Source of the DNA: a virus
Strand: one strand, 5' to 3'
DNA length: 64,000 nt
Virus record (IMG/VR): IMGVR_UViG_3300043424_000514
Span: 8,871-72,870 of that record
In this document: piece after piece, positions 7,597-58,399 of the stretch
Layout of the letters: each line of letters opens with the position of its first letter
Numbering within the stretch: position 1 is the first letter of the stretch
Program-made: the position numbers and the translations under genes
Notes under the pieces: generated by a model
The model's input: only the letters and a program-made list of their open reading frames with translations
What the model was told of the DNA's origin: nothing
The model's database searches: none

Positions 7597-7938
7597 ATGT
7601 TCACTTTTCCCACAAGCCCGCAACTTGGCGATACCGTCCAACTCGTAGATCGCATCTACCAGTGGAACGGCGCGGTGTGGCGGTCGATTCCGGTTACGGG
7701 GGCGCAAGGCCCCCCTGGGGCCCCAGGGCCCGCCGGACCCGCAGGCCCAGCCGGTCCCCAAGGGCAGCGAGGCGAGGCTGGCCCCGCCGGTCCAGTTGGC
7801 CCAGCAGGCCCCGCTGGGGCGAGCGGCGCACCAGGCGATCCAGGGCCTCCAGGCCCTGCCCCTTCGGGCACCGGCTTTGTTTTTGTGGAGAGCGGCGTGG
7901 CCTCCTCCACTTTGGACTTTGATGCCGGAACTTTTTGA
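7597..7938 (+). CDS. short collagen-like fibre protein
   Basis: N-terminal FPTSP...YQWNG..W, Gly-Pro-X run, C-terminal DAGTF. Confidence 0.75.
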
Positions 7939-30220: not shown

Positions 30221-33200
30221 ATGATTATTCCTTACGACCAAGTTGAGGGCTATGAAAACTACACTCCAACCCTTAACGAAGAGGAAGATAAAGAAAACCT
30301 AGTCCCTATCTCCAGCGTCCCCATGAAAATGCGGGAGGACCTTTCCCTAGGGGAGGAATTCGGGCGCGGGTTTGACCGCGGGTTGCTCCAAACCAAGGGC
30401 CTTGGCCTCGGGTTGGTGGGGGCCCTCGGCGAGGCGGCGGGGTTGGATGATGTCGAGGAGTATGGCTACACCGGAGCGCAAGAGGCGATGCAGGCTGCGT
30501 CGGCTCCTGAACTCGCAGGTGAGGTGGAGAGTATTTTCGATGTGGGGTCCCCTGGGGACTTTATGAGCTATGCCGCGGGGCTGATGGGGTCGCAGGTTCC
30601 GAACCTGGCGATCTCGGCTGTGACCGGCGGCGTGGGCGGTATGGTCGGCAAACGGGCTGTCTCCGCGGCGATCACCGAGGCTTTGGAAGCGAAGACGGCG
30701 CAACTCGTGGGCGAAGGCGTGGCGAAGGAAGTCGCCAAGCGGCAGGCGCAAGTGGCGCTCTCCCGCGAGATGGGCGTGAACATGGCTGAAAAACTTGCTG
30801 CCGAGAAAGCGGCGCAGATTGCCGCGACGAAGACGGGCATCGGCGTGGGCACGGCGGTATCCGGCGTAGGCATGGAAGTCGGCTCGATCTACTCCGAGAC
30901 TCGCGATCTGGGGCTGGCTGTGAAATACGGCGTGCCTGCCGGATTGGTGGAAGGTATCGCTGACCGATACTTTGGCGGCAAGATCGTGGACGCCATCGAG
31001 GGGACGAGCGGGACGAAGGGGCTCAAAGCAGCGGGTAAAGAATTTGTAAAAGGCATCGGGGTCGAAGGCGGCGAAGAAGGCGTGCAGACCGCGCTGGAGT
31101 TGCAGGCTCTCGAAGAATCCGGCGTGGAGCCAGGGTTCGAGTTGTTCTCGAAAGAGGGTGCCAAGCGTGTCACGGAAGGCGTGGCGGCTGGCGCAGTGAT
31201 GGGCGGTGGCATGGCTACAGGGGTGCAAGGCTTGAAGCTGGGCCTGACTCCGCTGACACAGCGGGCGCTACAAGATGTCGAGACGGGGCTTCCCCCAGGA
31301 ACCGAGACCCCAGGAACCGAACAGCAGGACACGACCGACGAGGAGAAATTTTACAACTTCTCACCAGACGCGGTGACGATCGACGACGGTGACGATGACC
31401 CGATCACGGCCCGTCGTTTTACGATCGGCACTGAGAAGGGTTGGGCAATCGACAACCCGACCGAGGAGATGCAGCGCCGACTGGTTCCCCTAGGGAACAC
31501 CGGCAAAGTGGCTCTTGTGGACGGGGGTAAAGGTTACGGCGATGCGCTCAAACACATCCTCAACAACGGCGGTCGGGTTCGTAACATCGACCCCTCGATT
31601 CTGGACAACGAGATCGCGGATGATGACGGGGAGTATGTGGGCTTGTCCTCGTTCACACAGGACAACAAGCTGGCTGCGGGCACGGGGCAGCAGCAGGGGA
31701 AAGTGCAGGGCACGGACCTTGAGATCGACGCGGAGCAGCGTGCTTTCGAGGATCAGTTAATTTCAAAATACGGCCAGCTAAACAATGTGCTGAATGCTAC
31801 GGAGTTGTTGGAATCCACAGGGGCGATGCCCCAGGGATCGTTCACCGGCTCTGAACGGGAGGCTTTGGGGGGAGGTCTGAATCAAGACGAGCGAAACGCG
31901 ATTCTTGCGGCGGTGCCTTCAAGGGAACTGACAAAATCCAAAGCCCAAGTGGAGCGACTGATCCGAGAAACGGAAGAAGCTGCGGCGAAAGAGGGGACGA
32001 CCCCAGAGCTTGAGCGCCGGTTGAACTTCCTCGCCGATGTGCAGGGGAGGATCGCGGATTTCGAGAACCTCAAGACGATGCAGCAAACCCTAGGGCGCAA
32101 GCCGCTGGAGGGTGGAGCCGCAGGGGAATTATCGGCAGGCGTTTCCAAGACTGACCCCGTAGAAGAAAAGCTCGCAGAGTGGAGCCGGATCGTGGAGGAG
32201 CGGGGGAAAGTCGATACCGAAATATCTTCACTACAAAAGCTAACTGCTCCTTCTGGTGGAGGTTCTATTTTTGATGCTCTCGACGCCTACGAGATGATGC
32301 TGTCAGATAGTCAGAAAGTTTCACAAGAAATTGCGGCGCTCAAAAAAGCAAAAGCCGACAAGAATCAAATCCAGGCGAAAATGCAGGAGCTTCGGAACAT
32401 TGAGGAGTCCGCAAGGGGGTTGATTAGTGAATCAGGCAACCAAGATTTGTTTGCAAATGAAGTTCGCAAGCAGGTTGTGGTAGAAGAAAGAAACAACTCA
32501 GCGGCTTACAAGGCATGGGACGCTTTAGTTCAGGAAGCTGACGCGCTACAAGCTGAACGGGATACTCTTGTTACTGAGGAGGACATCAAAAATTTTGACG
32601 AATCGTCAAAGGGAAAAAAACTAGAGACGATTGCTCAAAAAATCGACAAGGCTTACGAGCAAGTAGTCCCAACAGCACGACTCGCGGAGTTTTACAAAAA
32701 CGCTGCAAAAGTAGCTACTGCGAAAAGAGATGAACAGCGTCAAGTTGACCAAGCATCTCAAGAGCAAAGACTCGCTGCGGAAAATAACTTGAAGTCCGCG
32801 ACAGAGAAAAGCCGAGGACTGAACACAGATGTCGTCTATAAAACTCCTGATGGCAACACAGTCGTTGGAACCTTGGTGCCCGACCCCGAGACGGGGCGTG
32901 CATTGGACCAAAACGGGAATCTCGTTATCGCGCCGAAATCTTTTGAAGGCAGCGACAAAAGCGATTTAGTAGATACAAGAACTCAATACGGCGACCGCTT
33001 CATCCGAGTCCCCAGGGAAAATGTCTTGAACATTGTTCCAGACAAAACGGTGGGAGTGAAAACACAAGCGGCCAGCCAGGCAAAAGCCTTGGGCGTGGAA
33101 AACGCCGACCAGAATTCTCTGGCTCAGAACGCCACGGCGATTGCGGCCAAGCTCAATGAGCAATCGGAAGCCCGAGAGAAGGAACTGGAGAACTCTTTGG

Positions 33201-36200
33201 AGCCTGTCTTTACGAGAGACAACAAGGGCAAGTTGGTCCCAAGCGCGGTGCGTCGCGGGGAGACTGTCGGCTTGCGTTTAGAGGGTCGTGAGGCTTTGCA
33301 CAAGACGATGTATCTGCCAGACGGCACGACGCTCGTGCCCACCAACGCGGGAATCTTCCGTGGTGTGGAGGGGGCTGGAGTGGATCAACGAGTCGTCTTC
33401 GACCGCTACTATGTCGCCAAGCCCAAAGGGGCCAAAGCGCCTACCGCTACGAACACAGTATCGCTCCCAGTGTTGCGCCCTGGGGAGACGCTCATCACGC
33501 TAAACGACCTCTCGGACGAGCAGAAAACAAGCACTGGGATAACCCGCGCCAAAGGGGGCAAATGGAGAACCAGCGAACTTGTTTCCGAGGACCTTTGGGA
33601 CAACCTCTACAAAGCTCCTAAAGCTGCCGTCTTCGGAACAGCGAAGACGCCGGTGGGTGGAGTGCTTGCCCCTACTCAAAAGCCAACCCGCTCGGGGACC
33701 CGCATGACCCAGACGCCCAGCGTCGCGGAGACGGAAAGTGGAGACTTGGAACTTCAGGATGTTTTCACTTTTGAAGGCGACCTCACCGACGCGGAAAGAA
33801 TCTTGACTACCGCCCTGGGGAAATTTTCCGCTACCCCGACCCGCGAGGAATTGATCTCGGCGGGGTTCACGCCGACGAATGAGAAGGCGGAGTTCGAGGT
33901 GGCGCGTGGGAAGTATGCTCTGGAGGAGGTTCAGGATGTAACCATCAAAGACCCGCTCTCAGGGTCGGGCTTGGACATCCCCGTCAAAGCAGGGGTTTTC
34001 AAAGACTCCAAGAACCCCGACGCTCCGGCGCAAGTCAAGCTGTATGCCCAGTTCGACCTGAGCAAGGTGTATGCCGCGATGGAAGAATTGGAGGCCAAGC
34101 GCAAGGCCCCCGACACAGCGCAGAAAAACGCCAATATCGTCAGGGCCGAGCAATCCCTAGCCCGAGAGGTTCAGGACTTGCAGCGCCTCACGCTGGCTCA
34201 AATGAACATGGGCCTTGATGTTCGTGTCCGCGAAATCAATGGGGTGCCGGAGGCGCAGTTTCTTTCTGACTATGGGTTTGTCGCGTCGCGGAATGCGAGA
34301 GCTTCTGGAAATAAAGGGGCGTTCGGAAACCACATCATCACCGAAGTCACCTACAACCCGAACCCTGATTTCAAAAAGGGGGGAGACACTTTCCGTCGAA
34401 AGGCGCAGAGCCCAAGACAGACGCAGCAACAAGCCGCCGCAACGCTTACCAATACGACACTGCGAGGCCGCGGGTTCGACTTCAAAAAGACGGGGCTCGG
34501 GTCGGCGAATCAAATCTTAGGGAACTTCCGCCGCCAGATGCTCGACCGAGCGCAAGAGGCAAAAGAAAAAGAAGCAGAAGCAATCGAGAGTGGCTCCGAC
34601 CTTGCCGCTCGGCACGCCGAGGCTTTGGTCAAGCTCACCGCGTTCACCCGCCCGATGTTTGAACGCTACGCGGTGCCAATTCGTAAACATATCGAAGAGG
34701 CCCCAGGCTCGACGCCAGAGTTCAAAGACCGTTGGCGTATGCAAACCGAACTCTTCTTGGCGCGTGAGTTGAACAAGACGCAACTGCGGGCAATGCCTGA
34801 CTCTGTTGCGGCAGAGATGCAAAAACAGATCGAGACTAAAAAACGCAATGCTGATAAAATAGAACCTGTCCGCGGGAAGCGCCGAGTTAAAAAGAAAGGC
34901 AAGAACTACGGGCAGTTGGTCGATGATCCTTACCAGTCCGAGCGTCAATTCAAAATCCGCCGCAGAGAGTGGCAACAAAAACTCGATAGCGAAATTGCGG
35001 AGATAGAAGAAAAATTCTTTCGGCAAATGCTCCCCAGGGCGACCCGCGGCAATACGGGGGTTTCTGAAGTAAATCGCCTCACGAAAGAGATCGAGGATAA
35101 GAAAACAGCAATCCGCCAAAGCGTAGCCGCCACGAAGATCAAAGAAAAGCCGAGCGCCGAAGAAATCAAAAAGCAAATCAGCGCCGACTCAGAGGTTAAA
35201 AAACTAACCGCTTCTTTTCAACAAGCTAAAGGGGACGCAGCAAAAAAGCGTTGGAAGACCAAGCTGGAAGCTAGAAAAGCGCAGATTGAAAACAACGCAA
35301 TCGTCGAGCGCGACCCGACCGAGGGAGAGATTGAGACCGAGACCCGCAATCGAGTTCAAAAAGACCAAGACATCTACAATTTGGAGCGGAAGATCGAAAA
35401 GCTCGGGGAGTTCACGACAGCGCAAGACGCGATGATTGACGAGTTCTTGGGCTTCATACAAGCCGAGGCAGAAAAAAGCGGGAACCAAAATCAAAAAGCC
35501 CTGACAGAGAACCTTCGCCGATTGCTCGCTCGCAAAGAAGAAGCCGCAAAGGGAGGTAGAAAAGTATTTATCAATGTCCGCAAAGAGGTTGAAAAATCAG
35601 AGTCTTTTGCAGACCGCCAACTGCAAAAACAAATTAAGGCCGAAGCTAAAAAACTAGAAGCCACGGATGAAAGGGTAAAAGAACTCAAGGAAAAGCTCAA
35701 AAACGCGAAGCCTGGAAATGTTCTGCAACTAGAAAAGAAACTGCGGCTGCGAAAAGAAGCACTTCTCGAAGAAGCGGAATACCGTCTTTCCAAACAAGGG
35801 TTATTTATAGGACAAAACGACCAAAAAGCCGCCGAATCCGAAGAGCTTCTCGACTCCGCAGCTAAAGCGATGGATTCTGCACAAATCAGCGGCAACGACC
35901 GGATGTTCGAGGGTGCGGCTCAAAATTTTGCAGACCGGCAACAAGCCAATGAGGCAGAGAAGTTCTCCGACGCTGACCGAGCGATCGTCGAAGCCTTTGG
36001 CAAGATGATGGATGAGGTGAAAACCTTGAACATCTTTGGCACCACAGGGAGGGTTAAAGGCATCTTGCGACAAGGCTTCAATGAAGCAAGCAAGTTCAAA
36101 GGAGCTATCGAGAAGCAGGAGTTCGTTGACCCACAGACGGGAAAAGCTGCCGACGCGGGGAGCGACCTCGTGCAGGGAATGATCCGCGGGCAAGAAGACC

Positions 36201-39200
36201 CGCTGGCCTTTGAGAACTACCGCGAGCCTCGCAAGAAGGATGACGCGAAGCGGCAGGAATACCTAGAAGACCTCGCCGCCCTCAAACTCAGAGAACTCGC
36301 GAGGGAGGCAAATGACAAAACCAAAGGTGATGTTGACCCCAATATCGTAGAACTTGCCCTCGTAAAGCTCTTTGGCGGTAAGTTTGAAGGAGAAGTTGAG
36401 GGCAACTACATCAATGAGACTTTCGAGCCATTGGCAAAAGAATACGCCGATGTCATGGAAGACTTTTTCGCGGGCACAACCGCAAGGAAAGAACAACAAA
36501 GAATAGCTGAGATTGAAGCTGCCCGCGGCAAAGGCGAAAGGTCCACTCTGACAAAAGAAGAGTTGGAGCCGCTCAGAAAAGAATCGAGCCGCATATCGAA
36601 AATCGCCTTTGGCGTCATAGAGAATTATCTGTTCAACCCGAATACAAAACGAACCCTGTCGGGCAAGTCTTTACCGACGACTGAAAAGGTTTCTCTCGGA
36701 ATCCCAGGTGCTCCCCTTGCCAGCGCCCCAGGGGCGAACGGCACTGATGTAGCCCAGAGTAATAAAAACGCAACCGCTCAACCTGACCGCAACCCGACAA
36801 GGGAAGGATCAAAAGCGGCGGTGCAATCATTCGTGCAAGGTTATGCAGGGCTAACCGACTCCGACATGGTCGGACTTGATGATAGAGAAATCGACGCGAT
36901 CTACCAAGCGGCGACCTCGAAGGCCGATGCCGACATGGCGGCTGGCGCAGTGGACTCTGTCGTAGCTGCCACCCCAGGGATGAACGCGCTCCTCGAAATG
37001 AGCGGCAAGGATTTGATGCGCGGGTATCTCAGGGAACTCGAAGCAGAGCAGACCCGTGGAGATGCCGAGACGATCCTTCGCGAGAACCTCCGCAGGGCGG
37101 CGACAACGAAGATGTTCAAGTCGAACACCGACTTTCTGGAGTATGTCTCCAAGATGCCCCAGGGGATCAAGCGGGCGGCTGCACTTCGAGCGAAGGAATT
37201 CCTCAAGCTCAACGAGCAGCGCGGGTTCAACTGGAACAAGATCGCTACGCAGATCGCGGCGTTCGGCAAAGACGGCAAGCAGGCCACATGGGCGGGGCTC
37301 CTAGGGACCGACATGGAAACCGGCGGGCACGCCATCTTCCTGAACCTCGATCAGATTCACGAGGGCGACATCGTGGAGACGATGCTGGAGGAGATGGACC
37401 ACGCGCTCACCCACCGGATCATCAACGCGGAAGCCTTCGGCATGAAGCTGAACTCTGTTCAGCAAAGCGCCCGTGATCGTTTGAGAACGGATTTCAAACG
37501 CGCTGTGCTGAAAGCCGGAGAAGGCATGACCGAATTGGCCGAAGGAGCCCGTGGGTTGACGCCGGAGCAGAAGGTGGCGTTCTACTCGAACGCCTTCAAA
37601 GACATGGTGGCGGAAAGCCCCGATCAATTCCGTGCCTACTACAACCTTACGAACCTCGACGAGTTCGTGGTGGGCATCAAGAAGGACGGCAGCTTTATCG
37701 ACTTGCTCAAGGAACTTGGCTTCAGTGAAAAAGCCGAGGGCGGCTTCTCGATCTCGCAGCTCCTCAAAGACATTTTCACCTCGCTGGCGGAACTCGTCAC
37801 AGGGCGCAGGCTGGATGCAAACTCCGAGCTTGCCCGTGCGTTCTCCGACGCTTGGACCCTCTCCACAGGGCGCGATGCGAAGCAATGGACGGTGCCCCCG
37901 ACCCAGCTATCCATGGCCCTAGGGGTCGAGGCGGCAAGCACCAGCAAAGCGACCGGCAGCAATGAAACCGTGCGGATGCGTAAGGACGGCGGCACCGCCG
38001 TTTACAACGCCTACCTGCAACAGAACGAAGACGGGTCGTGGTCGGTCTTTGGAGAATTCGGAGACCCCACTAGGAAGCTCCAGCGTGCCGAGAAAAGCAA
38101 AGGCAAGCTCGATTACGAACAAGCCAAGGCGGTTTTCGACAAGACGGTTGAAGCCAAGTCCAAGAAATACTCGGTGATTCCTGAAGGACCAGAAGGACCT
38201 CAAGGACCAACGGGACCGAACGAAGGTCCTCAAGGCCCCCAAGGGCCACAAGGTCCACAAGGTCCCGCCGTGACTCCGCGGGCGCAGAGAACCCCAGGGG
38301 AATATGGTCGCAGCTTCCTGCCGCAATCCGCCCCAGGGCGGCGGTCGAATGTGACCAGGTTCAACGAACTCACCGCCGATCTGCAAGGGCGCAATCTTAC
38401 TCAAACCGACCTCGATGCTTGGAAGAACGCTAACCCTGAGAAGTATGCAGAGCTTGAAAAAATGCGGGAGGATGCGATTAAGTCCTCGGCAAGCAATAAC
38501 GGGCAAAAGGTATTCGGCCCGCTGTGGCACATTTCCAGTGAGACAGGACTTTCCGAAAACAGGTTTGACCCGAATAAAATAGGGAGCCAAACAGATAGCG
38601 GGTATTTAGCCAGAGGGTTTTATTTTGCCGGAAGTGAAGATGAGGCAAGAAACTCTGTCGGCCTCCAAACATCGAGGTCGGGAAAAGCATACCGAGTATT
38701 TGTAGGGTTCAAAAATCCTTTAGAAGTAACCCTACAGTCAAATTCGGTTGGAAACTGGCAATACAACGATGCTAATAAATCAGTTATAGAACAGCTTGCA
38801 AAAATCGTAACGCCTCAAAAATGGAATGAATTCTTAACCAAGTATAATTATAGCGCAGAAGAACTCAAAGAGCTTGGGTTAAGGCCCCCCTCCGAAATAA
38901 AAAATAGAGATTTAAGTTTCTATAATTTTTCGCTCAACGCTTACAACGAGTTGTTCAACTTTTTAGGGATAGATGGGATTGTTACTAAACTTAAAAATGG
39001 GGCTCCATTTGAAGTTGTAGGACTATCCACAGTAAAAAACCCAACCTTCAACCCTAACCAAATCAAGTCCGCCGAGCCGCTTAACCTTGAAAACGGACGG
39101 CTCATTCCGCCGACCGAGTGGGCGCAGCCGGAGAATCCAAACATCCTATACTCCGCCCCAGGGCGGCGGTCGAATGTGACCAGGATGCTCCTAGGGAAAA

Positions 39201-42187
39201 AAGAGGGGACGACTTACACCGGCAAGAAGGTGGAGACCGGTGGCTGGTTCGCCTCCGACGCCTTGGCGACGGATGGAGTGACCGCGATGTTCGATCGCAA
39301 GACGAACCGCGAGTCCTTCGGCAAGCAGCAGGCCGAATTTTATGACAAGGCCCTGGGCAGGGCGCTGAAGAAATACGAGGGCCAGTTCAACCCCAAAGAT
39401 GTCAACGACGCCCTGGGGAATATCGAAAACCCGCTCACCGAGGCGCAGGCCAGGGAGATCGACGAACTCGTGGCGACCAACCAAGAGGCGGATGCCGCCG
39501 TGCTGAAGAACGATTACATGGAGGCTAACCGCGCCGACTTCCGCAGGCGGCAGGCCGAGGCCCGCAAGCGTCTGCCCGAGGAGGTCGTGAAGATCATCGA
39601 GGAGATGCGCGACACGGTCGATCCGCTCAGTAGCTACGCCGACGAGAAGATGGGCTTCTCGACCGCCGCCAACCAAGGAATCTACCTGAACCGCGCTTAC
39701 CTGATTTTCGGGGACGAGAAGACAAGAGAGCTTCACCAAAAACAAATCCGCGAGAACCCTGTGGTGATGGAGAACCTAAAGAACTACCTCTCCCGACAAC
39801 TCGCGGAGCAGGACGCCGAGGCTTTGATCCGCCGAGCCACCCGCGAAGGGCGAATCCTCCCTAGGGAAGAAGCCTTGGTCCAAGCCACCGCCAATTTGTC
39901 GCCGACAGATTTGGGCGCGGCGATCGAGCGCGTGCTCAATGCGGGGGATAAAGGAGTCGGCTCCTTGTTTGTCTCGGGGCGCATCCCTGGGCAAAAGAAC
40001 CTGAAAATCTTTGATGCCCGCGGCAACATCGCCAAGGAAATCCAAGCGGCCTGGGGCGTGGTCGAAGACCCTGGCACGAACTACGCGAACACCGTCATCA
40101 AGCTCGCGAACCTGGTCGCCAACGACAAGTTCTTGCAAGAACTCAAGGCGGCGGGGCTGGAGTCGGGCACGCTCTACGACCCTAGGGACCCGAAGAACCT
40201 GAACGAGGAGGACGGGCAACGACTCGCTGACGCCCGCTCGGCGGCTCTGGAGGCCGATCCGACACTGGCGGCGCGGTCGCGCTTCAAGCCAGAGTTGCTC
40301 GATCGGGCAATGATCGCCCAAGACCCTGTGGTGGCGAGCATCCTCGAACAGGCTGAAAGCAAAGTCCCTTCAAAATATGTAAAGCTATCCAGCGAGACGA
40401 ACAAATCGTTCGCTCCCGTCTCGGGTATGTATGCGGAGCCGCTCTTGTTCGAGTGGTTGACCACGAAGTTCCCGCCGAGGGGCGAGGAGAGTTGGTGGAT
40501 GAAAGCCCTTACGCAGGCAACGCTCGTCCCTATGGCGATGAAGACCGTAGGCAGCGTGACAGGGCAATTCCGAAACTACTACTCGGGCTATATGTCGCTG
40601 CTTTCTAATAGCAACTTGAGGTTTTGGGACCCTGAGTGGCGGGAGGATTTCAAAGCCGCGCACCGCATGACCTTCGGAGAAATCTATCGGGATGTGCGGG
40701 GAATCTCTACCGATGCCACAGCTCGCAAGGCGATGATGAAAGCCCGCGAAAGGCTTTCGGAGTTGGGAGTGACCGGCCAATCCGTGACGATGAACTTCAT
40801 GCAGGACTTGGCGCGGCTGAACTCTGGCAAGGAGAACGGCATCGTCAAAGGAATCGACGGGCTGGTTCAGAAATTCATCCAGACCTACGGAGCATCGGAC
40901 GACAATTTCAAAATCATCCACTACTTCAGCGAGCTTGGCAAATACCGCAGGGCGTTCCCTGATATGCCGCAGGCACAGCTTGAGGAAAAAGCCGCCGCGA
41001 TCGCCCGCGGGATTCATCAAACTTACGGAGACACTTACTCGGCGGTGAAGTCGTTGAAGAAAGTTCCGTTCATCGCGCCGTTCATCAGCTTCACCTCGGA
41101 GGTGATTCGCAATACGATTTATTCAGGGCGCTTGGCGTGGAACGAAGTCAAAGAAGGCCGTGCCACAGGGAATCGGGAACTCGAACGAATCGGGCTCCAA
41201 AGATTCGCCGGAATGAGCATTGCGGGCTTTGGCACCTTTGCATTGACGAGCATCAGCGCATCTCTTGTAGGGATCAGCGGCGAGGAGGAGCGGGAGTTCC
41301 GAAAGCTGCTGCCGGAGTGGCAGCGCAACAGCCAACTTCTTTTCACAGGGAAAGAAAACGGGAAGATTAGATTCGCTGATTTCAGTTTTAGTGACCCGCT
41401 ATCGTATCTGAAAACCCCTGCGATCGCTTTTAGCAGAGAAATCTGGAGCGGCGACGAACGCTCGTTCAACGAGAAAGTCGGTAAGGGAATTCTAAACGCC
41501 ATGCAAACCCTCGCGTCTCCGTTCGTCTCGGAGCAGTTGTTCTCGGGTTCTTTGATGCAGCTTTACTCGAACAAGGACGGATCAGGCAGGGAGATCGTGA
41601 ACTGGCAAGACGACCCCGCCGCGATTGCAGGGGCGGTAGGAGGGCACCTAATCCAGCCATTCCTGCCAGGAACATTCGACTCCCTAGGGCGCATTGGCAA
41701 AGCCTTTACCGGCTATGTCAGCCCGAGCGGTCGCTCCTATGACAAGGGGAACGAAATTATGAGCTTCTTCGGAGCGCGTATCTCCGAGGTGGATGTGCGC
41801 CAATCCCTAGGGTTCAAGACCAAGGCGTTCATGCAGAACTACCGCGAGGCGGCAGAACTGTTCACAGGGCCGTTCTTGTCCCGCGGCACGCAGGATAGCG
41901 AGAGCATCGTGGAAGGATACGAAAGCGCCAACAGCGCGGTTCAGCGGTTGTTCGGAGAACTGCGGGGAATCTACCTCGGGGCGGTTCGACTCGGCGTTCC
42001 TCAACGGGAAGTCCTCTCGATCCTCAAGGCAAACGGACTTTCAGAAGAAAATCTCGCGATGCTTCGCAGCGGCAAGTTCAAGCCCTACCAAGCCAGCAAG
42101 CAGGCAATCACAAAGAACAGGGAGGCGGGGATGCAAACCCGAATCTCAGACTACAACAAAGCGTATGCGGCGGCTCAAAGACCCTAA
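30221..42187 (+). CDS. giant polyvalent internal virion protein (zincin-like, WGR, ADP-ribosyltransferase, LPD38-like C-terminus)
   Basis: 3988-aa ORF; LEEMDHALTH...NLDEFV; WGR-like YNAYLQ..DGSWSVFGEFG..LQ...AKAVFDK.VEAK.KKY; ART-like WH...FD...G.GFYF...KNP...GIDGI...NPNQIKSA; LPEWQRN..L...DFSFSDP. Confidence 0.8.
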   Translation: MIIPYDQVEGYENYTPTLNEEEDKENLVPISSVPMKMREDLSLGEEFGRGFDRGLLQTKGLGLGLVGALGEAAGLDDVEEYGYTGAQEAMQAASAPELAGEVESIFDVGSPGDFMSYAAGLMGSQVPNLAISAVTGGVGGMVGKRAVSAAITEALEAKTAQLVGEGVAKEVAKRQAQVALSREMGVNMAEKLAAEKAAQIAATKTGIGVGTAVSGVGMEVGSIYSETRDLGLAVKYGVPAGLVEGIADRYFGGKIVDAIEGTSGTKGLKAAGKEFVKGIGVEGGEEGVQTALELQALEESGVEPGFELFSKEGAKRVTEGVAAGAVMGGGMATGVQGLKLGLTPLTQRALQDVETGLPPGTETPGTEQQDTTDEEKFYNFSPDAVTIDDGDDDPITARRFTIGTEKGWAIDNPTEEMQRRLVPLGNTGKVALVDGGKGYGDALKHILNNGGRVRNIDPSILDNEIADDDGEYVGLSSFTQDNKLAAGTGQQQGKVQGTDLEIDAEQRAFEDQLISKYGQLNNVLNATELLESTGAMPQGSFTGSEREALGGGLNQDERNAILAAVPSRELTKSKAQVERLIRETEEAAAKEGTTPELERRLNFLADVQGRIADFENLKTMQQTLGRKPLEGGAAGELSAGVSKTDPVEEKLAEWSRIVEERGKVDTEISSLQKLTAPSGGGSIFDALDAYEMMLSDSQKVSQEIAALKKAKADKNQIQAKMQELRNIEESARGLISESGNQDLFANEVRKQVVVEERNNSAAYKAWDALVQEADALQAERDTLVTEEDIKNFDESSKGKKLETIAQKIDKAYEQVVPTARLAEFYKNAAKVATAKRDEQRQVDQASQEQRLAAENNLKSATEKSRGLNTDVVYKTPDGNTVVGTLVPDPETGRALDQNGNLVIAPKSFEGSDKSDLVDTRTQYGDRFIRVPRENVLNIVPDKTVGVKTQAASQAKALGVENADQNSLAQNATAIAAKLNEQSEAREKELENSLEPVFTRDNKGKLVPSAVRRGETVGLRLEGREALHKTMYLPDGTTLVPTNAGIFRGVEGAGVDQRVVFDRYYVAKPKGAKAPTATNTVSLPVLRPGETLITLNDLSDEQKTSTGITRAKGGKWRTSELVSEDLWDNLYKAPKAAVFGTAKTPVGGVLAPTQKPTRSGTRMTQTPSVAETESGDLELQDVFTFEGDLTDAERILTTALGKFSATPTREELISAGFTPTNEKAEFEVARGKYALEEVQDVTIKDPLSGSGLDIPVKAGVFKDSKNPDAPAQVKLYAQFDLSKVYAAMEELEAKRKAPDTAQKNANIVRAEQSLAREVQDLQRLTLAQMNMGLDVRVREINGVPEAQFLSDYGFVASRNARASGNKGAFGNHIITEVTYNPNPDFKKGGDTFRRKAQSPRQTQQQAAATLTNTTLRGRGFDFKKTGLGSANQILGNFRRQMLDRAQEAKEKEAEAIESGSDLAARHAEALVKLTAFTRPMFERYAVPIRKHIEEAPGSTPEFKDRWRMQTELFLARELNKTQLRAMPDSVAAEMQKQIETKKRNADKIEPVRGKRRVKKKGKNYGQLVDDPYQSERQFKIRRREWQQKLDSEIAEIEEKFFRQMLPRATRGNTGVSEVNRLTKEIEDKKTAIRQSVAATKIKEKPSAEEIKKQISADSEVKKLTASFQQAKGDAAKKRWKTKLEARKAQIENNAIVERDPTEGEIETETRNRVQKDQDIYNLERKIEKLGEFTTAQDAMIDEFLGFIQAEAEKSGNQNQKALTENLRRLLARKEEAAKGGRKVFINVRKEVEKSESFADRQLQKQIKAEAKKLEATDERVKELKEKLKNAKPGNVLQLEKKLRLRKEALLEEAEYRLSKQGLFIGQNDQKAAESEELLDSAAKAMDSAQISGNDRMFEGAAQNFADRQQANEAEKFSDADRAIVEAFGKMMDEVKTLNIFGTTGRVKGILRQGFNEASKFKGAIEKQEFVDPQTGKAADAGSDLVQGMIRGQEDPLAFENYREPRKKDDAKRQEYLEDLAALKLRELAREANDKTKGDVDPNIVELALVKLFGGKFEGEVEGNYINETFEPLAKEYADVMEDFFAGTTARKEQQRIAEIEAARGKGERSTLTKEELEPLRKESSRISKIAFGVIENYLFNPNTKRTLSGKSLPTTEKVSLGIPGAPLASAPGANGTDVAQSNKNATAQPDRNPTREGSKAAVQSFVQGYAGLTDSDMVGLDDREIDAIYQAATSKADADMAAGAVDSVVAATPGMNALLEMSGKDLMRGYLRELEAEQTRGDAETILRENLRRAATTKMFKSNTDFLEYVSKMPQGIKRAAALRAKEFLKLNEQRGFNWNKIATQIAAFGKDGKQATWAGLLGTDMETGGHAIFLNLDQIHEGDIVETMLEEMDHALTHRIINAEAFGMKLNSVQQSARDRLRTDFKRAVLKAGEGMTELAEGARGLTPEQKVAFYSNAFKDMVAESPDQFRAYYNLTNLDEFVVGIKKDGSFIDLLKELGFSEKAEGGFSISQLLKDIFTSLAELVTGRRLDANSELARAFSDAWTLSTGRDAKQWTVPPTQLSMALGVEAASTSKATGSNETVRMRKDGGTAVYNAYLQQNEDGSWSVFGEFGDPTRKLQRAEKSKGKLDYEQAKAVFDKTVEAKSKKYSVIPEGPEGPQGPTGPNEGPQGPQGPQGPQGPAVTPRAQRTPGEYGRSFLPQSAPGRRSNVTRFNELTADLQGRNLTQTDLDAWKNANPEKYAELEKMREDAIKSSASNNGQKVFGPLWHISSETGLSENRFDPNKIGSQTDSGYLARGFYFAGSEDEARNSVGLQTSRSGKAYRVFVGFKNPLEVTLQSNSVGNWQYNDANKSVIEQLAKIVTPQKWNEFLTKYNYSAEELKELGLRPPSEIKNRDLSFYNFSLNAYNELFNFLGIDGIVTKLKNGAPFEVVGLSTVKNPTFNPNQIKSAEPLNLENGRLIPPTEWAQPENPNILYSAPGRRSNVTRMLLGKKEGTTYTGKKVETGGWFASDALATDGVTAMFDRKTNRESFGKQQAEFYDKALGRALKKYEGQFNPKDVNDALGNIENPLTEAQAREIDELVATNQEADAAVLKNDYMEANRADFRRRQAEARKRLPEEVVKIIEEMRDTVDPLSSYADEKMGFSTAANQGIYLNRAYLIFGDEKTRELHQKQIRENPVVMENLKNYLSRQLAEQDAEALIRRATREGRILPREEALVQATANLSPTDLGAAIERVLNAGDKGVGSLFVSGRIPGQKNLKIFDARGNIAKEIQAAWGVVEDPGTNYANTVIKLANLVANDKFLQELKAAGLESGTLYDPRDPKNLNEEDGQRLADARSAALEADPTLAARSRFKPELLDRAMIAQDPVVASILEQAESKVPSKYVKLSSETNKSFAPVSGMYAEPLLFEWLTTKFPPRGEESWWMKALTQATLVPMAMKTVGSVTGQFRNYYSGYMSLLSNSNLRFWDPEWREDFKAAHRMTFGEIYRDVRGISTDATARKAMMKARERLSELGVTGQSVTMNFMQDLARLNSGKENGIVKGIDGLVQKFIQTYGASDDNFKIIHYFSELGKYRRAFPDMPQAQLEEKAAAIARGIHQTYGDTYSAVKSLKKVPFIAPFISFTSEVIRNTIYSGRLAWNEVKEGRATGNRELERIGLQRFAGMSIAGFGTFALTSISASLVGISGEEEREFRKLLPEWQRNSQLLFTGKENGKIRFADFSFSDPLSYLKTPAIAFSREIWSGDERSFNEKVGKGILNAMQTLASPFVSEQLFSGSLMQLYSNKDGSGREIVNWQDDPAAIAGAVGGHLIQPFLPGTFDSLGRIGKAFTGYVSPSGRSYDKGNEIMSFFGARISEVDVRQSLGFKTKAFMQNYREAAELFTGPFLSRGTQDSESIVEGYESANSAVQRLFGELRGIYLGAVRLGVPQREVLSILKANGLSEENLAMLRSGKFKPYQASKQAITKNREAGMQTRISDYNKAYAAAQRP
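38327..39184 (+). repeat. exact 33-bp direct repeats (38327-38359, 39152-39184) flanking the ART domain
   Basis: TCCGCCCCAGGGCGGCGGTCGAATGTGACCAGG twice, 825 nt apart, in frame (SAPGRRSNVTR). Confidence 0.95.
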
Positions 42188-42389: not shown

Positions 42390-42432
42390 TTCTTAATTGA
42401 ACGATCAGGGGGTTCAGGTGTCTAATACCCCC

Positions 42433-42894
42433 ATGAAAAAACTTGCTTTGATTCTTGGGCTCTTGGCTGCACCTGCTCTCCATGCGGACGATGACGCGGT
42501 GGCGACGGCGGTGAACGGAAACACCTTCTTCTCCAGCGGAGAGTCGGCAACGACTGTGGGAAAGAATACTTTTTTCTCGGACGGGGAGAGCGCCACGACA
42601 GTCGGGAAGAACACTTTTTATTCGGATGGCGAGACAGCCACGGTAGTCGGGAAGAATACCTTTTATTCGGACGGGGTGACTGCGACAACCGTGGGAAAGA
42701 ATACTTTTTATTCGGACGGCACGGTGGCGACTCAAGTGGGCAAGAACACCTTCGTCGATAGCGACGATGAGGAGGGGGCCGAGCGGGCGCTCAAGGCGGT
42801 GGCGATCCCGAGCGCGATCGAGTCCAATGAGGATTCATACAAAGGATACGAGGGGTTCAAGGGATACGAGGGTTATTCCTACGACGAAGAGTAA
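42433..42894 (+). CDS. secreted protein with 15-aa tandem repeats
   Basis: signal peptide MKKLALILGLLAAPALHA; about six ATTVGKNTF(F/Y)SDGxx repeats. Confidence 0.75.
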   Translation: MKKLALILGLLAAPALHADDDAVATAVNGNTFFSSGESATTVGKNTFFSDGESATTVGKNTFYSDGETATVVGKNTFYSDGVTATTVGKNTFYSDGTVATQVGKNTFVDSDDEEGAERALKAVAIPSAIESNEDSYKGYEGFKGYEGYSYDEE

Positions 42895-54323: not shown

Positions 54324-54451
54324 ATTATTTATCTTTCTTTTTGTTTGGTTTGCGGCGGTAAAACAAAAGGGAGTTACACCATGTAACTCCCCTTCGTGCA
54401 GCCTTGCCGCTTGGCTACAAAGTTTCTTTGTTTAAGGTTTTCTTAAACGGG

Positions 54452-54865
54452 TTAGTAGAGGTCGCGATCAGCAGGGGTTCCCGCATCGACTACTCGGAAC
54501 TCCGTTGAATACTCGCCTCGGTAGTCAGCCAAGGCGTCAACTTCAGTAGCATAGATCGCAGTTTCATACTCCCCTTTCATCTTGAAATCAGCCCATCCGT
54601 CAAGGTAGCGGACCTGAACCTTGAACCTAGTCAACTTGACTGCTTCATAGTCAGGGCGGTTCAAGGTATAAAGCAAGTAGTCCTGATTGGATTTCGTTGC
54701 TTCGAGCAGGGTCCCGCAGTTATGCCAAGAGGATGATTCGATTGGGCACATCCACGACTCACCTGTGATTAGGTTTGTCACTCGGTAAGGGCAGTCAGTT
54801 GCATTGATGTCCACGATTTCAACTTTGAGGTCGTGGATGTAGTGGGTTATGTTAGTCTTGCTCAT
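54452..54865 (-). CDS. hypothetical early protein
   Basis: start after shared leader; C-terminal domain paralogous to 55569-55976. Confidence 0.6.
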   Translation of the reverse strand: MSKTNITHYIHDLKVEIVDINATDCPYRVTNLITGESWMCPIESSSWHNCGTLLEATKSNQDYLLYTLNRPDYEAVKLTRFKVQVRYLDGWADFKMKGEYETAIYATEVDALADYRGEYSTEFRVVDAGTPADRDLY

Positions 54866-54884
54866 AATCAGTTTCCTTTCTTTG

Positions 54885-55532
54885 TTAGTGACCTCCCTCG
54901 TAAGTGCGGCCTGCTTTGATGGTGCCGTCGGACAGGAAATGAATGATGAACCCATCCCCCAAGTCATTGCTCGGCATGACATCCGCTATGTGGTAAACCC
55001 CATCGGGGCGGCAACCTACATACTGCCCGTAAGGCCAGATTCTAACGGTCGTCCCACCAAATTGCGTTTCCACATACCACTCTCGCGGCTTGACCGAACC
55101 CCTGAACCCAGCAACCGAGCCTATTTTGAAGTCGGCTTTGTAAGTTTGGTAGTCGATCCACCCGAAAAGATGGAGGACTGAAGTTAAGTCCGCAGTCTTG
55201 TCGGGGAAGTGTTCGTCGATGAAGTAGTGCATCGAGCCGCGATCCATGCGGGAGTATTCCAACTCCCTCACATCACTTTCACTTAGCTGGTTTTCTGTAT
55301 TGGGTGGTGGCTCTGCGTCCAGAATCCCATCCGAGTCTTCGACAACCTCGAAGCGATCTGCGTCCCAGACAAAGGGGTAGGGAGCCTTGTCATCGAGGAC
55401 AAACCCTCGCTTTACGATAGCCCCTTTATGGTCACGCCCCTTGTCGATGATGAGGTTGACCTTGTGAACTTCACCCTCAACAAGCAGGTCGAAGTAACCA
55501 CGCTTAACTTTAACTTTAAGATATTTAATCAT
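54885..55532 (-). CDS. hypothetical early protein
   Basis: 215-aa ORF with GAAAGGAAAC SD. Confidence 0.6.
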   Translation of the reverse strand: MIKYLKVKVKRGYFDLLVEGEVHKVNLIIDKGRDHKGAIVKRGFVLDDKAPYPFVWDADRFEVVEDSDGILDAEPPPNTENQLSESDVRELEYSRMDRGSMHYFIDEHFPDKTADLTSVLHLFGWIDYQTYKADFKIGSVAGFRGSVKPREWYVETQFGGTTVRIWPYGQYVGCRPDGVYHIADVMPSNDLGDGFIIHFLSDGTIKAGRTYEGGH

Positions 55533-55568
55533 AGTTTCCTTTCTTTGTTTAAGGTTTTCTTAAACGAG

Positions 55569-55976
55569 TTAGTAGATGTCGTCATCTGACCCCGTGTTTT
55601 CCGGCACAACCCGATATTCCGAGTAGTTGAACTCTTCACGCACCTCGGCGTGAGCCTCGCCGCAAGACATCAACTCAACCTCGTAAGGCCCGCCATCGAC
55701 AGACACTTTGAGGTCGGCCCACCCATTCACCGAGCGGGTTTGAATCTTCCACTTGGATTCCTTGAACCCTATGATCCTTGATTCATCCACATCGAAGTAG
55801 CCTTCTCTGGTCGTCTGGATTGTGGCGTCGTGTTCTTTGGCGAGTTCATTCGCCTCTTCGCTGTCCTCCAGCATAAGCTCGGCTATTTCCATAGCCACCT
55901 TTCTGGAAGGGGCTTCAATACGGAAGCTGTCGTGACGAGTGGCTTCCATTACAATTTCAATCTCGAATGTTTTCAT
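55569..55976 (-). CDS. hypothetical early protein
   Basis: SD leader; GWAD...RVV...D.D(L/I)Y C-terminus shared with 54452-54865. Confidence 0.6.
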   Translation of the reverse strand: MKTFEIEIVMEATRHDSFRIEAPSRKVAMEIAELMLEDSEEANELAKEHDATIQTTREGYFDVDESRIIGFKESKWKIQTRSVNGWADLKVSVDGGPYEVELMSCGEAHAEVREEFNYSEYRVVPENTGSDDDIY

Positions 55977-55994
55977 TTGGTTTTCCTTTCTTTG

Positions 55995-56393
55995 TTATCG
56001 GCTAACGCCGAGTTGCTTTCTAATCCACGGCTCTGTTGTCTGGTCGCCATGCTCAACCAAGGCATCGAGTGCCGTGTAGAGCAGGGACAACAAGTCGAAC
56101 TGGTCGGTAACAGGATTGATTGTGGGGTGCGTATCGCTATACCCCTCTCGCTCGTTCTTGTGTTCCTCGAACCAGTCTGTGATCTTCTGGTGCATAGAGT
56201 CTAGGAACTGCAACGCCTCCTGTTTCTCTTTCTCCTCGTAGGATTTGTTCATCCAATCAGTTATCAATGAAGCGCCGCCGATGATTTCCTTTCGGTCGAA
56301 CGGGATGCCGTAAGCCATAGCCATAGACAACTGCGCCATGCTGTAAGCCATCCAAGAGTATTCTTCTTTCGAGAGTGTAGGGTCTAACTTCAT
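55995..56393 (-). CDS. hypothetical early protein
   Basis: SD leader. Confidence 0.6.
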   Translation of the reverse strand: MKLDPTLSKEEYSWMAYSMAQLSMAMAYGIPFDRKEIIGGASLITDWMNKSYEEKEKQEALQFLDSMHQKITDWFEEHKNEREGYSDTHPTINPVTDQFDLLSLLYTALDALVEHGDQTTEPWIRKQLGVSR

Positions 56394-56412
56394 AATCAGT
56401 TTCCTTTCTTTG

Positions 56413-56622
56413 TTATCGGGTAACAGGGTTCCAGTAGGCCGAGATGTGCGCCGGAAAATACCGAGCGAGGATGTCGAGGGTCTGCTTGTTCTCTGCTGGG
56501 GTGCAGCGGTTCACCTCCTCGATCCACCTGTCGGGATCGGCGGGGATGTGCTTGGCTGATGGACGCCACTCCTCCAAGGGTTTGTTGTTCAGGGTGGCGA
56601 TGTCGTTTCTTTCTATTCTCAT
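56413..56622 (-). CDS. hypothetical early protein
   Basis: AAAGCAACCT-ATG leader. Confidence 0.5.
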   Translation of the reverse strand: MRIERNDIATLNNKPLEEWRPSAKHIPADPDRWIEEVNRCTPAENKQTLDILARYFPAHISAYWNPVTR

Positions 56623-56775
56623 AGGTTGCTTTACCTTTAGGCGCTTTGATTCCCTAGGGAGGTGACAGAGTTACGCCATGTAACTCCGATCCCTATGGGA
56701 ACTTGCAGTTGCGCCCGACCGCAAGCTGCCGCTCCCTGTTAGCGGATAACAGGAAGCGGGGTGCTTGCGTTCAGG

Positions 56776-56859
56776 TCAGAGCCAGAACAGGGCGAGCAAC
56801 GCCCCGATGCCGACGACCAGTCCGGCAAAGTCAGCGATGAGAATAAGCAGGTCTTTCAT
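56776..56859 (-). CDS. 27-aa single-pass membrane peptide
   Basis: MKDLLILIADFAGLVVGIGALLALFWL preceded by AAGAAAGG SD. Confidence 0.55.
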   Translation of the reverse strand: MKDLLILIADFAGLVVGIGALLALFWL

Positions 56860-57016
56860 AGTAGCCTTTCTTGTTGAATGTTTCTTCGATGAGCCGATAA
56901 GCCTCGGCCTTGGTTTGCGGAGTGCGGGAGACTCCGAGCTTGCGAAGCGTCTCGATCTGTCGATAGGTCGGCAGAACCTCACGCCATGAAGGAGGTAATA
57001 AGTTCATGTGGACTTA

Positions 57017-57256
57017 TTACACCGAGAGCGTGGCAAACGGCTGGTAGGTGAGCCTGTCCGATGTGGGCTGGCTTGGCTTGTCGCCAAGCAGGTTGGCGGG
57101 GATCGTGTTCAAGTTGCACCGAACGCGGCGCGAGCCGTGGTTGATGTCAACGCCTTCATGCTTGAGGGTGTTCAAGTCGGCGATGGATTGAGCCGCCATG
57201 TAGTTGCGGATGAAGCGATGGCTGGCGTTTTCGTTACGGATGATGATGTCTTTCAT
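57017..57256 (-). CDS. hypothetical early protein
   Basis: 79-aa ORF; weak leader. Confidence 0.45.
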   Translation of the reverse strand: MKDIIIRNENASHRFIRNYMAAQSIADLNTLKHEGVDINHGSRRVRCNLNTIPANLLGDKPSQPTSDRLTYQPFATLSV

Positions 57257-57396
57257 ATTACTTAATGCCTGAAGTCCCCTAGGTTTAATTGCCCAAAGAG
57301 TTAGGGGAGCCTTGGTTCTTTGGTTCTGCTGGTATCAACAGACTGCTGCCCCGTTTAAGGTTTTCTTAAACGAGGCAGAGTGTCTATCGGGTCAGA

Positions 57397-57786
57397 TTAG
57401 CTGACCAGCTTGGCGGCGATCTTCGCCGCGAGCTTCTTGTCGATGTTGAACTCCTGCAACACCGCCATGATCTTGGACTTGCGGCCTTTGAGCATGGTCT
57501 TCTGCAATTCCGCCTTGGCTTCCTCACTCATCGGGGTGCCGAAGATCGTCTTGGCCCAATAGCTGATCTTGTTGGCTACGGCGAAGTAGGCGGATTTGGC
57601 CTTGTCGTCCTTCTTCCGATTCGCCGAGAGATCGGCGAAGTTCCACACGGCTTTCAACTCGTCGCGAAGCTGGTCTTCTGTGATGCCAGATGCCTTGATG
57701 CTTGGGATCATGGCGATGACGCTGTCATGCTGTGATTGAGCGGCGACGATGGCATTGACGATGGATTTTAGTGTTACTTTTTTCAT
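57397..57786 (-). CDS. basic Lys/Ala-rich protein, first gene of early array
   Basis: 129 aa; flanked on both sides by GTTTAAG hairpins. Confidence 0.65.
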   Translation of the reverse strand: MKKVTLKSIVNAIVAAQSQHDSVIAMIPSIKASGITEDQLRDELKAVWNFADLSANRKKDDKAKSAYFAVANKISYWAKTIFGTPMSEEAKAELQKTMLKGRKSKIMAVLQEFNIDKKLAAKIAAKLVS

Positions 57787-58399
57787 TGTGTCTTGTCTTT
57801 CTGAAATGCGTTTAAGGTTTTCTTAAACGGCTTGATGAAGGATTGAAGCGGCTGTGGCGGTGTCGCCGATTGGCGACCGCTTCCGTTCATCCCTTCACTG
57901 ATTCATTGCGCCGTTATCGTTTTTCCCTAGTGAACGGAGGATGCTTGGAATCGCAAACCGATTGCATTTCGCCGAAACATCCAAGGCAACTTTGCTATTT
58001 TCGCCATTTTCGCCTGAAACAGGCATGGACACACTAGGACAAAGCGGGACAAGGAATCCATGAACCATTGATTATCAACGACTTACAAAGAATCAGGCAC
58101 AGGTCAAAAGCCCGCACCCACCACCCACCCCACCACGGTGCCTCCCTATCAGGCGCTGTCCATATAATACTATCTTATATACCGGCTTACAAAATTTTTT
58201 CGTTATTTTAAGCGTTATTAACTTTTTAGGTAATTTAGCAAGTCCCTAGGGAAGATAAAAAGCTCAAGCGCAAGCGCAAGCCGCTCGAAAGCTAGAAAAC
58301 TTAGCCGGAGGCTCTACGATTGGAGGATTTTACTGCGAAGACCGCGAAGCGCGGGCAAAAGTCTCGGTTTTTTCGACTGAAAAGGGGCTCCGATAGGGC

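Follow-up and report, generated by a model that had tools for sequence, protein, structure and literature searches.

The 64,000-nt stretch of DNA analysed here, referred to as the window, covers positions 8,871 to 72,870 of the IMG/VR record IMGVR_UViG_3300043424_000514, a 72,870-nt uncultured phage genome rated complete, and the sequencing runs that hold it are freshwater metagenomes. Within a block of large open reading frames (ORFs) on one strand lies a giant gene (30221..42187, + strand), which encodes a protein of 3988 amino acids, P0001, assigned as a putative polyvalent-type virion protein from the ORF call, a PHROG match and its relatives. A complete ADP-ribosyltransferase (ART) module of the ART-PolyVal family (F2714-Y2977; 38360..39151, + strand), delimited by Pfam, alignment and an AlphaFold2 (AF2) model, was found in frame inside this gene between two exact copies of a 33-nt direct repeat. 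In this study, we describe the repeat, the module and the corresponding site in related proteins. In our judgement, this giant phage protein, which is probably delivered by the virion, is likely to contain a slot for hot-swappable in-frame modules; the repeat would be its mark, and the ART what the slot holds now.

The slot is situated at the end of a collagen-like Gly-Pro linker (P2654-A2683; 38180..38269, + strand), with an N-terminal part of ~2650 residues before it and a C-terminal part of 1000 residues (39185..42184, + strand) after it, the latter being 97-99% identical in clade I relatives (see below). The linker was recognised from the translation and from PHROG tail-fibre/collagen-type matches at residues 2650-2692, and its copy number differs among alleles. 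This collagen-like stretch was the only part of the query matched in the cultured-phage collection (8 records, ≤2% of the query); further collagen-like repeats were observed at 2860-3083 and 7699-7844. Most of the 3988 residues gave no family match, the ART being the one recognised effector domain, while residues 3385-3981 matched PHROG 22602 ('virion structural protein', E 4e-24). No protease domain was found in P0001 with Pfam. A profile built from 17 members of the giant-protein family retrieved no PDB chain at E ≤ 0.01, and this included the likeness to the N4 mini virion RNA polymerase (mini-vRNAP) for which it was also used, a distant relation being possible. By analogy, the virion probably packages the giant protein and delivers it together with the DNA.

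The two copies of the repeat were located by exact-match scan and translation at 38327..38359 and 39152..39184, both on the + strand and both in frame in the giant ORF, 825 nt (275 codons) apart. Each encodes the peptide SAPGRRSNVTR, with 33 of 33 bases identical; the second occupies the position of the single copy present in the empty alleles described below. No near-copy was found in the window when up to three mismatches were allowed, none of 100 dinucleotide-preserving shuffles reached two matches, and the 33-mer is the longest exact direct repeat of the window, the next exact pairs being 26 and 22 nt long. Using the codon usage of the giant gene, the chance of obtaining the same 11 codons twice for this peptide was calculated as ~2-4e-7. 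The two copies therefore share a recent DNA ancestry, whether duplicated or homogenised; they are not an ancient pair whose likeness was preserved by peptide-level selection. A sequence-only reading of the window had reported the two repeats and their identity at synonymous positions, and both the exact-match scan and the codon calculation bear it out. In the AF2 model, the second copy (residues 276-286 of the modelled insert) is unstructured, with a predicted local distance difference test (pLDDT) score below 50, as expected for a linker; a disordered linker of this kind should tolerate the insertion of whole domains.

The module consists of an N-terminal helical extension, an H-Y-D core and a tail ending '...NQIKS...NPNILY'. 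Pfam PF18760 (ART-PolyVal) matched the cut-out insert with 33.9 bits (cut-off 31.2, E 6.6e-8), upholding the earlier naming of the enclosed domain as an ART; with the whole 3988-residue protein as query the score was 25.8 bits, below the cut-off. No other Pfam family was matched by the insert. The insert was aligned with four inserts homologous to it and with six short homologues, 11 sequences in all. H68 and D216 do not vary in this alignment and Y99 hardly does, a pattern in keeping with the H-Y-D active site of the ART-PolyVal family; from their order and the model, we infer that the three residues lie on strands 1, 2 and 5. The model has a mean pLDDT of 75.7. Foldseek returned no match for it at E ≤ 0.001, and the top match, a pre-ejectosome chain of cyanophage A4, was discarded as too weak (E 1.1e-3, template modelling score (TM) 0.23, root-mean-square deviation (rmsd) 17). 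The best VIA-align Z of 6.2 (rmsd 4.5, 127 residues aligned) agrees with an ART fold but is below 8 and weak alone; all 50 VIA-align rows listed are PARP/ART-type catalytic domains or ART toxins. By analogy with T4 Alt, the enzyme most likely ADP-ribosylates host proteins early in infection.

Both ends of the module were defined by comparison with homologues. Four stand-alone homologues end at, or within two residues of, the last Y of the tail ('...N-x-D-I-R-Y'), so the right edge of the insert corresponds to the natural C-terminus of stand-alone ART-PolyVal proteins and the slot holds a whole module. ART-PolyVal matches in 5 of 7 other proteins scanned are likewise framed by the N-terminal helical part and the C-terminal tail, both of which therefore belong to the ART module; that they form a general frame for unrelated domains was considered and rejected, since the intervals in these 5 of 7 are ART-PolyVal. 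Neither terminal inverted repeats nor a transposase were found, the insert being a single frame continuous with the host gene, and the only inverted repeat within it (38406/38664, 18 nt) is internal. The motif Q-I-K ... N-x-[ND]-I-R-[YF] was also observed up to three times per protein in unrelated giant proteins (P0024-P0069). Polyvalent proteins may use this module-ending motif as a signal for processing or docking.

Slot contents among relatives

Relatives were sought with residues 2400-3988 of P0001, which gave 18 long proteins (E reported as 0 for P0002-P0017, 5e-193 for P0018 and 2e-8 for P0019), and a search of shorter proteins added two fragments that span the site (P0089, P0090). P0018 (39% identical) and P0019 (25%) were left out of the comparison as their anchors align poorly; P0018 carries LPD23 (PF18838) in the same gene. 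At the DNA level, four loci were matched in metagenome_contigs, of which only L002 reaches the slot, while viral_contigs were negative for two single-protein queries and for the 17-protein alignment, and genome_contigs were negative as well. The slot table and the tree thus comprise 20 alleles, 19 from proteins and one from L002, and the slot was read in each between the same upstream and downstream anchors.

The slot is empty in eight alleles (P0003, P0004, P0005, P0013, P0014, P0015, P0016 and P0090). It holds an ART in five, which fall into three sub-types (P0001 with P0006; P0007 with P0008; P0009), and LPD37 in four (P0010, P0012, P0017 and L002). LPD37 was identified as Pfam PF18853 in the two alleles scanned (E 8e-18 and 9e-22) and by precomputed label in the other two. 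Another module of ~250-280 residues, present in P0002 and P0089, matched no Pfam family and no named family in Atlas (best score 0.86), and one allele (P0011) has a further module of ~165 residues. The earlier suggestion to look for orthologues with absent or different cassettes was thus answered positively, with 8 empty alleles and 7 carrying modules other than ART among the 20. Among the seven protein alleles of clade I, to which the window belongs, four are empty, two have the unrelated module and only that of the window has an ART.

An unrooted tree was calculated from the first 600 residues after the slot. It resolves four clades, each with 100% support in the Shimodaira-Hasegawa-like approximate likelihood ratio test (SH-aLRT), and each clade contains between two and four slot states, an ART of some type being present in three of the four. 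The nearest neighbour of the window by flank is P0003, which is empty, and the ART-bearing P0006 pairs with the empty P0016. At least 11 changes of slot state are needed on the 20 tips, where the minimum possible is 6; in 500 shuffles of the labels, 8-12 changes were needed and 54% gave 11 or fewer. As 11 changes are what shuffled labels give, the content of the slot has no detectable phylogenetic signal. On this comparison of sequences, the turnover of the slot is much faster than the divergence of its carrier, and the polymorphic in-frame effector slot is real, its module being recently exchanged and dispensable.

Junctions and the recent core

Contigs from four sequencing runs (X1, X5, X7 and X12) were compared with positions 36000-41000 of the window. 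Single contigs of X7 (5380 nt) and X12 (9990 nt), from two other studies without a flag as possible sources, bridge the slot, running from 38256 or 38268 to 39152 with 10 or 7 letters between; in X12, 38268 is joined to 39152 with 7 letters between. Both are in frame and read G-P-A-P-E before the repeat, as in P0003-P0005. Compared with the window, the empty alleles have 883 nt (38269-39151) replaced by 7, and the segment lost includes 19 codons, VTPRAQRTPGEYGRSFLPQ (38270..38326, + strand), that precede the first repeat copy; P-E stands there instead. As they also lack these upstream codons, the empty alleles are not products of repeat-by-repeat excision from the window allele. The sequence-only reading had proposed that recombination between the repeats would remove the domain without a shift of frame, as a plug-in/plug-out mechanism. 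The frame argument stands (825 = 3 x 275) and the site is naturally found empty or refilled, but the natural empty alleles did not arise in that manner from the window allele. It was also considered whether the 19 codons represent a decayed third copy of the repeat, and this was rejected: the alignment score of 16 is that of the contained octamer alone and is reached by 13.5% of 2000 shuffles (P = 0.14), and other octamer-bearing windows score 16-22 against the repeat.

An assembly artefact has to be weighed, in which a foreign ART contig was threaded between two copies of a short common sequence. A 33-nt repeat is a branch point for short-word assemblers, and the contigs of X1, a possible source run, come as three pieces (36000-38356, 38330-39181 and 39155-41000) that break inside both repeat copies because their 31-letter words are shorter than the repeat. 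These pieces, from an independent contig set, are exactly the three expected and show 0 differences from the window, and junctions of both types require molecules running in frame from repeat to ART and from ART to repeat. In addition, a homologous module occurs at the same codon position in other alleles (P0006-P0009), and in X5, a run of a different study, one contig continues across the repeat into the ART. We regard an artefact as barely credible. No deletion or circle junction was observed, such junctions being invisible in contigs built from 31-letter words, which are shorter than the repeat. The depth of the X1 cassette contig is 26, against 36.1 and 39.3 for the flank contigs, each a single figure per contig that is open to GC bias; such a gap could mean that about a third of the genomes have lost the module repeat by repeat, and it was not used as evidence.

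The ART contig of X5 aligns with 38324-39078 at 24 differences over 755 nt (~97% identity) and enters the repeat from an upstream sequence which is open in frame and different from that of the window, while a second X5 contig has the left context of the window, including the 19 extra codons, up to the repeat. Judging by this upstream context, modules may occur in different orders or arrays.

The composition of the insert is not uniform. GC content falls to 0.32-0.40 at 38680-39039, compared with ~0.57-0.67 in the flanks, and GC at third codon positions (GC3) drops from 0.57 over the opening 51 codons to 0.39 over the 170 that follow (38513-39022), before it reaches 0.65 over the final 43; in the giant gene it is 0.63 upstream of the slot and 0.73 downstream. 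The same division was found in the comparison with P0006, a clade III allele: of the 286 residues from repeat to repeat, mismatches number 14 in residues 1-61, 4 in 62-259 and 12 in 260-286, and BLAST puts the core at 98% identity, with 84% in the N-terminal part and 88% in the tail. The flanks of P0006 are only 67% identical to those of the window upstream and 50% downstream. The tail of the insert is closest to yet another clade (94% to P0008), and its N-terminal end is about equally distant (84-86%) from the N-terminal ends of all other clades. From the mismatch counts and GC3, a near-identical AT-rich core tract shared with P0006 was delimited at 38510..39103 (+ strand). By these measures, the ART module is itself a mosaic, and its latest exchange is placed at ~38510-39103, within conserved module ends; as the low-GC3, near-identical tract lies inside the module, this last exchange did not use the repeats.

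These data modify the earlier picture in part. The enclosed DNA had been described as AT-richer than its flanks and as a recent acquisition of the effector domain. The GC dip is present, the GC and codon profile that had been suggested as a check singles out the core from the module ends, and recency is upheld by the core's 98% identity to P0006, its GC3 and the polymorphism of the slot. The dip, however, stops short of the repeats and the module ends are host-like in GC3, so that the foreign tract is smaller than the repeat-bounded insert, and the repeats are not the edges of the acquired DNA.

An ART that is ancestral at the slot, with the other states derived by repeated loss or replacement and an old allele in the window, would account for its presence in three of the four clades. 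The module ends, host-like and 84-86% identical to those of other clades, look long resident, and the tree cannot polarise the changes. Nevertheless, the core at least is recent, given its GC3 of 0.39 and its 98% identity to P0006, an allele that shares no more than 50% identity with the window in the C-terminal flank; the perfect identity of the 33-nt copies argues for a recent event, and six of the seven clade I protein alleles have no ART. We think an ancestral ART distinctly improbable.

The repeat may instead matter chiefly as a peptide, with S-[A/L]-x-G serving as a linker or processing motif behind every module. Such a motif would separate or space the modules, an incoming module would have to bring a copy of its own, and the nucleotide identity would only reflect recency. 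This explanation is compatible with an exchangeable slot, and we hold it to be possible, though on balance doubtful. Whatever the clade, every filled allele has S-[L/A]-x-G to its left and to its right, in a form that varies from clade to clade (SLAGAR...SLAGAR, SLxG...SLPGA and SAPGR...SAPGRRSNVTR), and in L002 the protein motif is retained although none of its codons is. Among polyvalent proteins unrelated to P0001, S comes directly after the tail motif N-x-[ND]-I-R-[YF] in 16 of 19 internal cases, next to the point at which the four stand-alone proteins end (within two residues), and in the parts of their paper drawn on here Iyer et al. 2017 (PMC5512222) suggest a cleavage of polyvalent proteins into separate units. 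On the other side, P0001 has no protease domain by Pfam, a match of three residues (S, L/A, G) is weak, and the empty alleles retain the motif with nothing to separate; selection on the peptide alone, moreover, cannot yield 33 of 33 identical bases.

Routes of exchange and repeated words

The giant gene is also mosaic outside the slot. Relatives that are otherwise 89-93% identical carry diverged replacement blocks of similar or different length at ~32.2-33.0, 35.5-36.0 and 36.2-36.7 kb (32200-33000, 35450-36000 and 36230-36720), and in the X12 contig the block 36229-36716 is of the same length and diverged. With a gene so strongly mosaic elsewhere, frequent recombination between co-infecting relatives can be taken as the background process. 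Modules of the slot would be gained, lost and replaced through the same kind of recombination between co-infecting relatives, at two levels: whole modules may be exchanged at the linker motif P-x-S-[L/A]-x-G ..., and module cores within the conserved module ends. The 33-nt repeat would then have arisen recently, when the joining of a module behind the recipient's linker codons duplicated these codons; alternatively, its identity may have been renewed by conversion between the two copies. The pair could now serve as a substrate on which short-homology recombination removes the ART precisely and in frame, and excision through the repeat is plausible. Virion delivery, the role of the enzyme, the duplication origin and actual excision are steps which we infer.

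Several observations weigh against the exchangeable slot as set out here. Gain and loss are not separable on an unrooted tree. The latest transfer ended inside the module and not at the repeats. All empty clade I alleles have P-E before the repeat, and the expected excision product (the 19 codons, one repeat copy, then MLLG) was found neither among the seven clade I proteins nor in the two bridging contigs. In L002, whose module has a GC content of 0.35-0.47 against 0.51-0.57 in the flanks, all four codons differ between the S-L-x-G motifs at the two boundaries, and no nucleotide repeat was found in the flanks; with no codon shared, nucleotide repeats are not the general exchange device of the family. 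In the other clades, the protein-level repeat is only 4-6 residues long, and together with L002 this makes the long repeat peculiar to the window allele. No zincin-like metallopeptidase (MPTase) was matched in P0001 by Pfam at E ≤ 0.1, and the virion location rests on the name of a PHROG family and on analogy. Finally, no recombinase, integrase or annealing protein was recognised in the 34 distinct neighbouring ORFs scanned, small ORFs excluded; the sole recombination-type match among them was one PHROG 'exonuclease' (12150-13187).

The sequence-only reading had pointed to an octamer in the repeat. It is present (CCCCAGGG) but is a word over-represented genome-wide, with 35 occurrences on both strands of the window against 2.7 expected (maximum 8 in 100 shuffles), in all three codon phases. 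It belongs to the family CCCYRGGG, whose members number 28 (CCCTAGGG), 22 (CCCCAGGG), 14 (CCCTGGGG) and 1 (CCCCGGGG) in the 72,870-nt record; sites in the window include 30345, 33010, 36726, 38292, 38331 and 39156. A third of the CTAG of the genome lies inside CCCTAGGG, and CCGG-centred words are rare (CCCGGG 1, CCCCGG 3, CCGGGG 3). The three common forms would be the expected products of C-to-T change at the central CpG of CCCCGGGG. The locus L002 (~44% protein identity) has 7 copies of CCCTAGGG in 14 kb. The family may be an iterated palindrome, a binding or modification site, or the result of a repair bias; nothing relevant on CCCTAGGG as an iterated word was present among the literature matches listed. 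That CCCYRGGG marks the mosaic boundaries in the giant gene was rejected, with 6 of 61 boundaries within 15 nt of a site (P = 0.22) and P = 0.55 for the median distance.

The repeat also contains a 14-nt near-palindrome with 6-nt arms around CA, which has 11 matches in the window at up to two mismatches, where 1.3 are expected; 6 of the 11, however, come from the repeat copies themselves together with a near-palindromic site at 42298, each scored on both strands. These matches bear on a dedicated site-specific cassette system, integron-like but in frame, in which the 33-nt unit is the attachment site of a phage enzyme and modules travel with the repeat, perhaps in circular form, and can be stacked into arrays. 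Two contexts would suit such a system: that of X5, where the ART has the repeat in front and a different open-frame upstream, and that of the window itself, which can be read as a 19-codon unit and repeat followed by ART and repeat. Yet the 34 neighbouring ORFs gave no integrase or recombinase, viral_contigs gave no match to the exact repeat (a 26-nt piece as query), no nucleotide repeat accompanies the module of L002, and the octamer is genome-wide and not tied to mosaic boundaries. The junction offsets also differ: the module of P0002 and P0089 starts after SAPGR and ends ...APQ before a full SAPGRRSNVTR, and that of the window starts after SAPGRRSNVTR. A dedicated system is very improbable in our view. 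A bolder form of the exchangeable slot, which we consider unlikely, takes the 33-nt unit as the working joint of an in-frame cassette system, whose modules carry one linker copy each, stack in arrays and move by short-homology recombination, possibly aided by CCCYRGGG, a word contained in each copy. If it were true, the window and X5 would be two arrays, and the system a phage counterpart of integrons that shuffles domains and not genes.

Other repeats were observed in the window. Right after the giant gene, ORF 42397-42894 contains four tandem 45-nt (15-codon) repeats, 70-74% alike (42520-42752). The adjacent ORFs 3270-4037 and 4073-4840, of 255 amino acids each, are 73% identical over 300 nt and may thus be a tandem duplication of one gene. 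Between 44602 and 53455, in a block of - strand genes, up to 11 copies of a ~38-nt intergenic repeat stand just ahead of - strand ORFs and have GGTTATTA[CT] as their end on the + strand; no octamer of the genome is more over-represented than TAATAACC/GGTTATTA (24 on both strands), and these repeats are probably phage promoters with ribosome-binding sites. A further repeated element, with the palindrome-like GTTTAAGGTTTTCTTAAAC, occurs in 3-4 copies at 54423-57849, including an exact 22-nt pair, and the exact 26-nt pair (54862 and 56390) lies in the same 54-58 kb region of repeated, regulatory-looking motifs. By their appearance, the elements at 54423-57849 look like operators or terminators.

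Comparison with known systems

Giant polyvalent phage proteins, whose domain make-up is known to differ, are believed to bring into the host a mixture of enzymes by which it is disarmed or taken over. To our knowledge, the origin of their domain variation has so far been deduced mostly from distant comparisons. At the present locus, exchange is seen at close range, near-identical phages differing only in the content of one codon-exact slot, and one module core has just crossed between lineages whose carrier proteins are half diverged. The slot would thus be a defined place in which to seek new anti-host effectors, including the modules of ~250-280 and ~165 residues, and a natural design rule for the insertion of domains into giant proteins. 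It also raises the testable question of whether short linker repeats drive exchange.

In integrons, an integrase acting at attC sites mobilises cassettes that are entire genes and lie outside reading frames. The slot resembles them in that exchangeable units, each with a short imperfect palindrome beside it, enter at one fixed point; it differs in that no integrase was found in the 34 neighbouring ORFs scanned and no nucleotide repeat at the module of L002. In polymorphic toxins (Rhs and contact-dependent inhibition (CDI) systems), C-terminal toxin cassettes are replaced at a conserved motif, with immunity genes and silent orphan copies. Polymorphic toxin loci are mentioned as an analogy, in the part of the text used here, by Iyer et al. 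2017 (PMC5512222). Common to both systems are in-frame replacement of an effector at a conserved junction and a high turnover unrelated to the phylogeny of the carrier, whereas the slot module is internal to a phage virion protein and neither an immunity gene nor an orphan store was seen.

Module swapping at short conserved motifs in T-even tail-fibre adhesins was reportedly described by Tetart et al. in 1998. For the T-even adhesin gp38, the sections of Trojet et al. 2011 (PMC3157838) relevant here describe glycine-rich motifs between hypervariable segments, with exchange at the motifs. As in the slot, short conserved sequences flank variable segments and related phages exchange there; on the evidence of those sections, the adhesin motifs lie within one domain and separate variable loops, whereas the slot, in a disordered linker, takes whole unrelated enzyme domains, or nothing.

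T4 Alt, named in the cited passages of Iyer et al. 2017 (PMC5512222) as the model of a packaged ART injected with the DNA, serves equally as our working model for a virion-borne ART. As far as these passages go, Alt is of the R-S-E type and a separate gene product, whereas the slot module is of the H-Y-D type and lies within a protein of 3988 amino acids.

A further comparison is with the polyvalent proteins themselves, as defined by Iyer et al. 2017 (PMC5512222), where the passages drawn on list ART among the hubs and common domains, give an H-Y-D active site for ART-PolyVal (Tox-ART-HYD2-like) and propose processing by the MPTase, which is called a hub and not a requirement. The same passages raise cassette-like recombinational variability as a possibility for one kinase-bearing group, and the term 'direct repeat' has 0 occurrences in them. 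Our literature searches, which were not aimed at that claim, found no codon-exact effector slot, empty or filled, in such proteins. P0001 departs from the polyvalent proteins of those passages in having no MPTase or other hallmark domain by Pfam. It agrees with them in being a giant multi-domain phage protein with an H-Y-D ART, LPD37 in its relatives, a probable delivery with the virion and a variable architecture; what sets it apart, within the scope of those passages, is a single codon-exact slot that is empty or filled with ART, LPD37 or other modules among near-identical relatives, with an exact nucleotide repeat at the joint.

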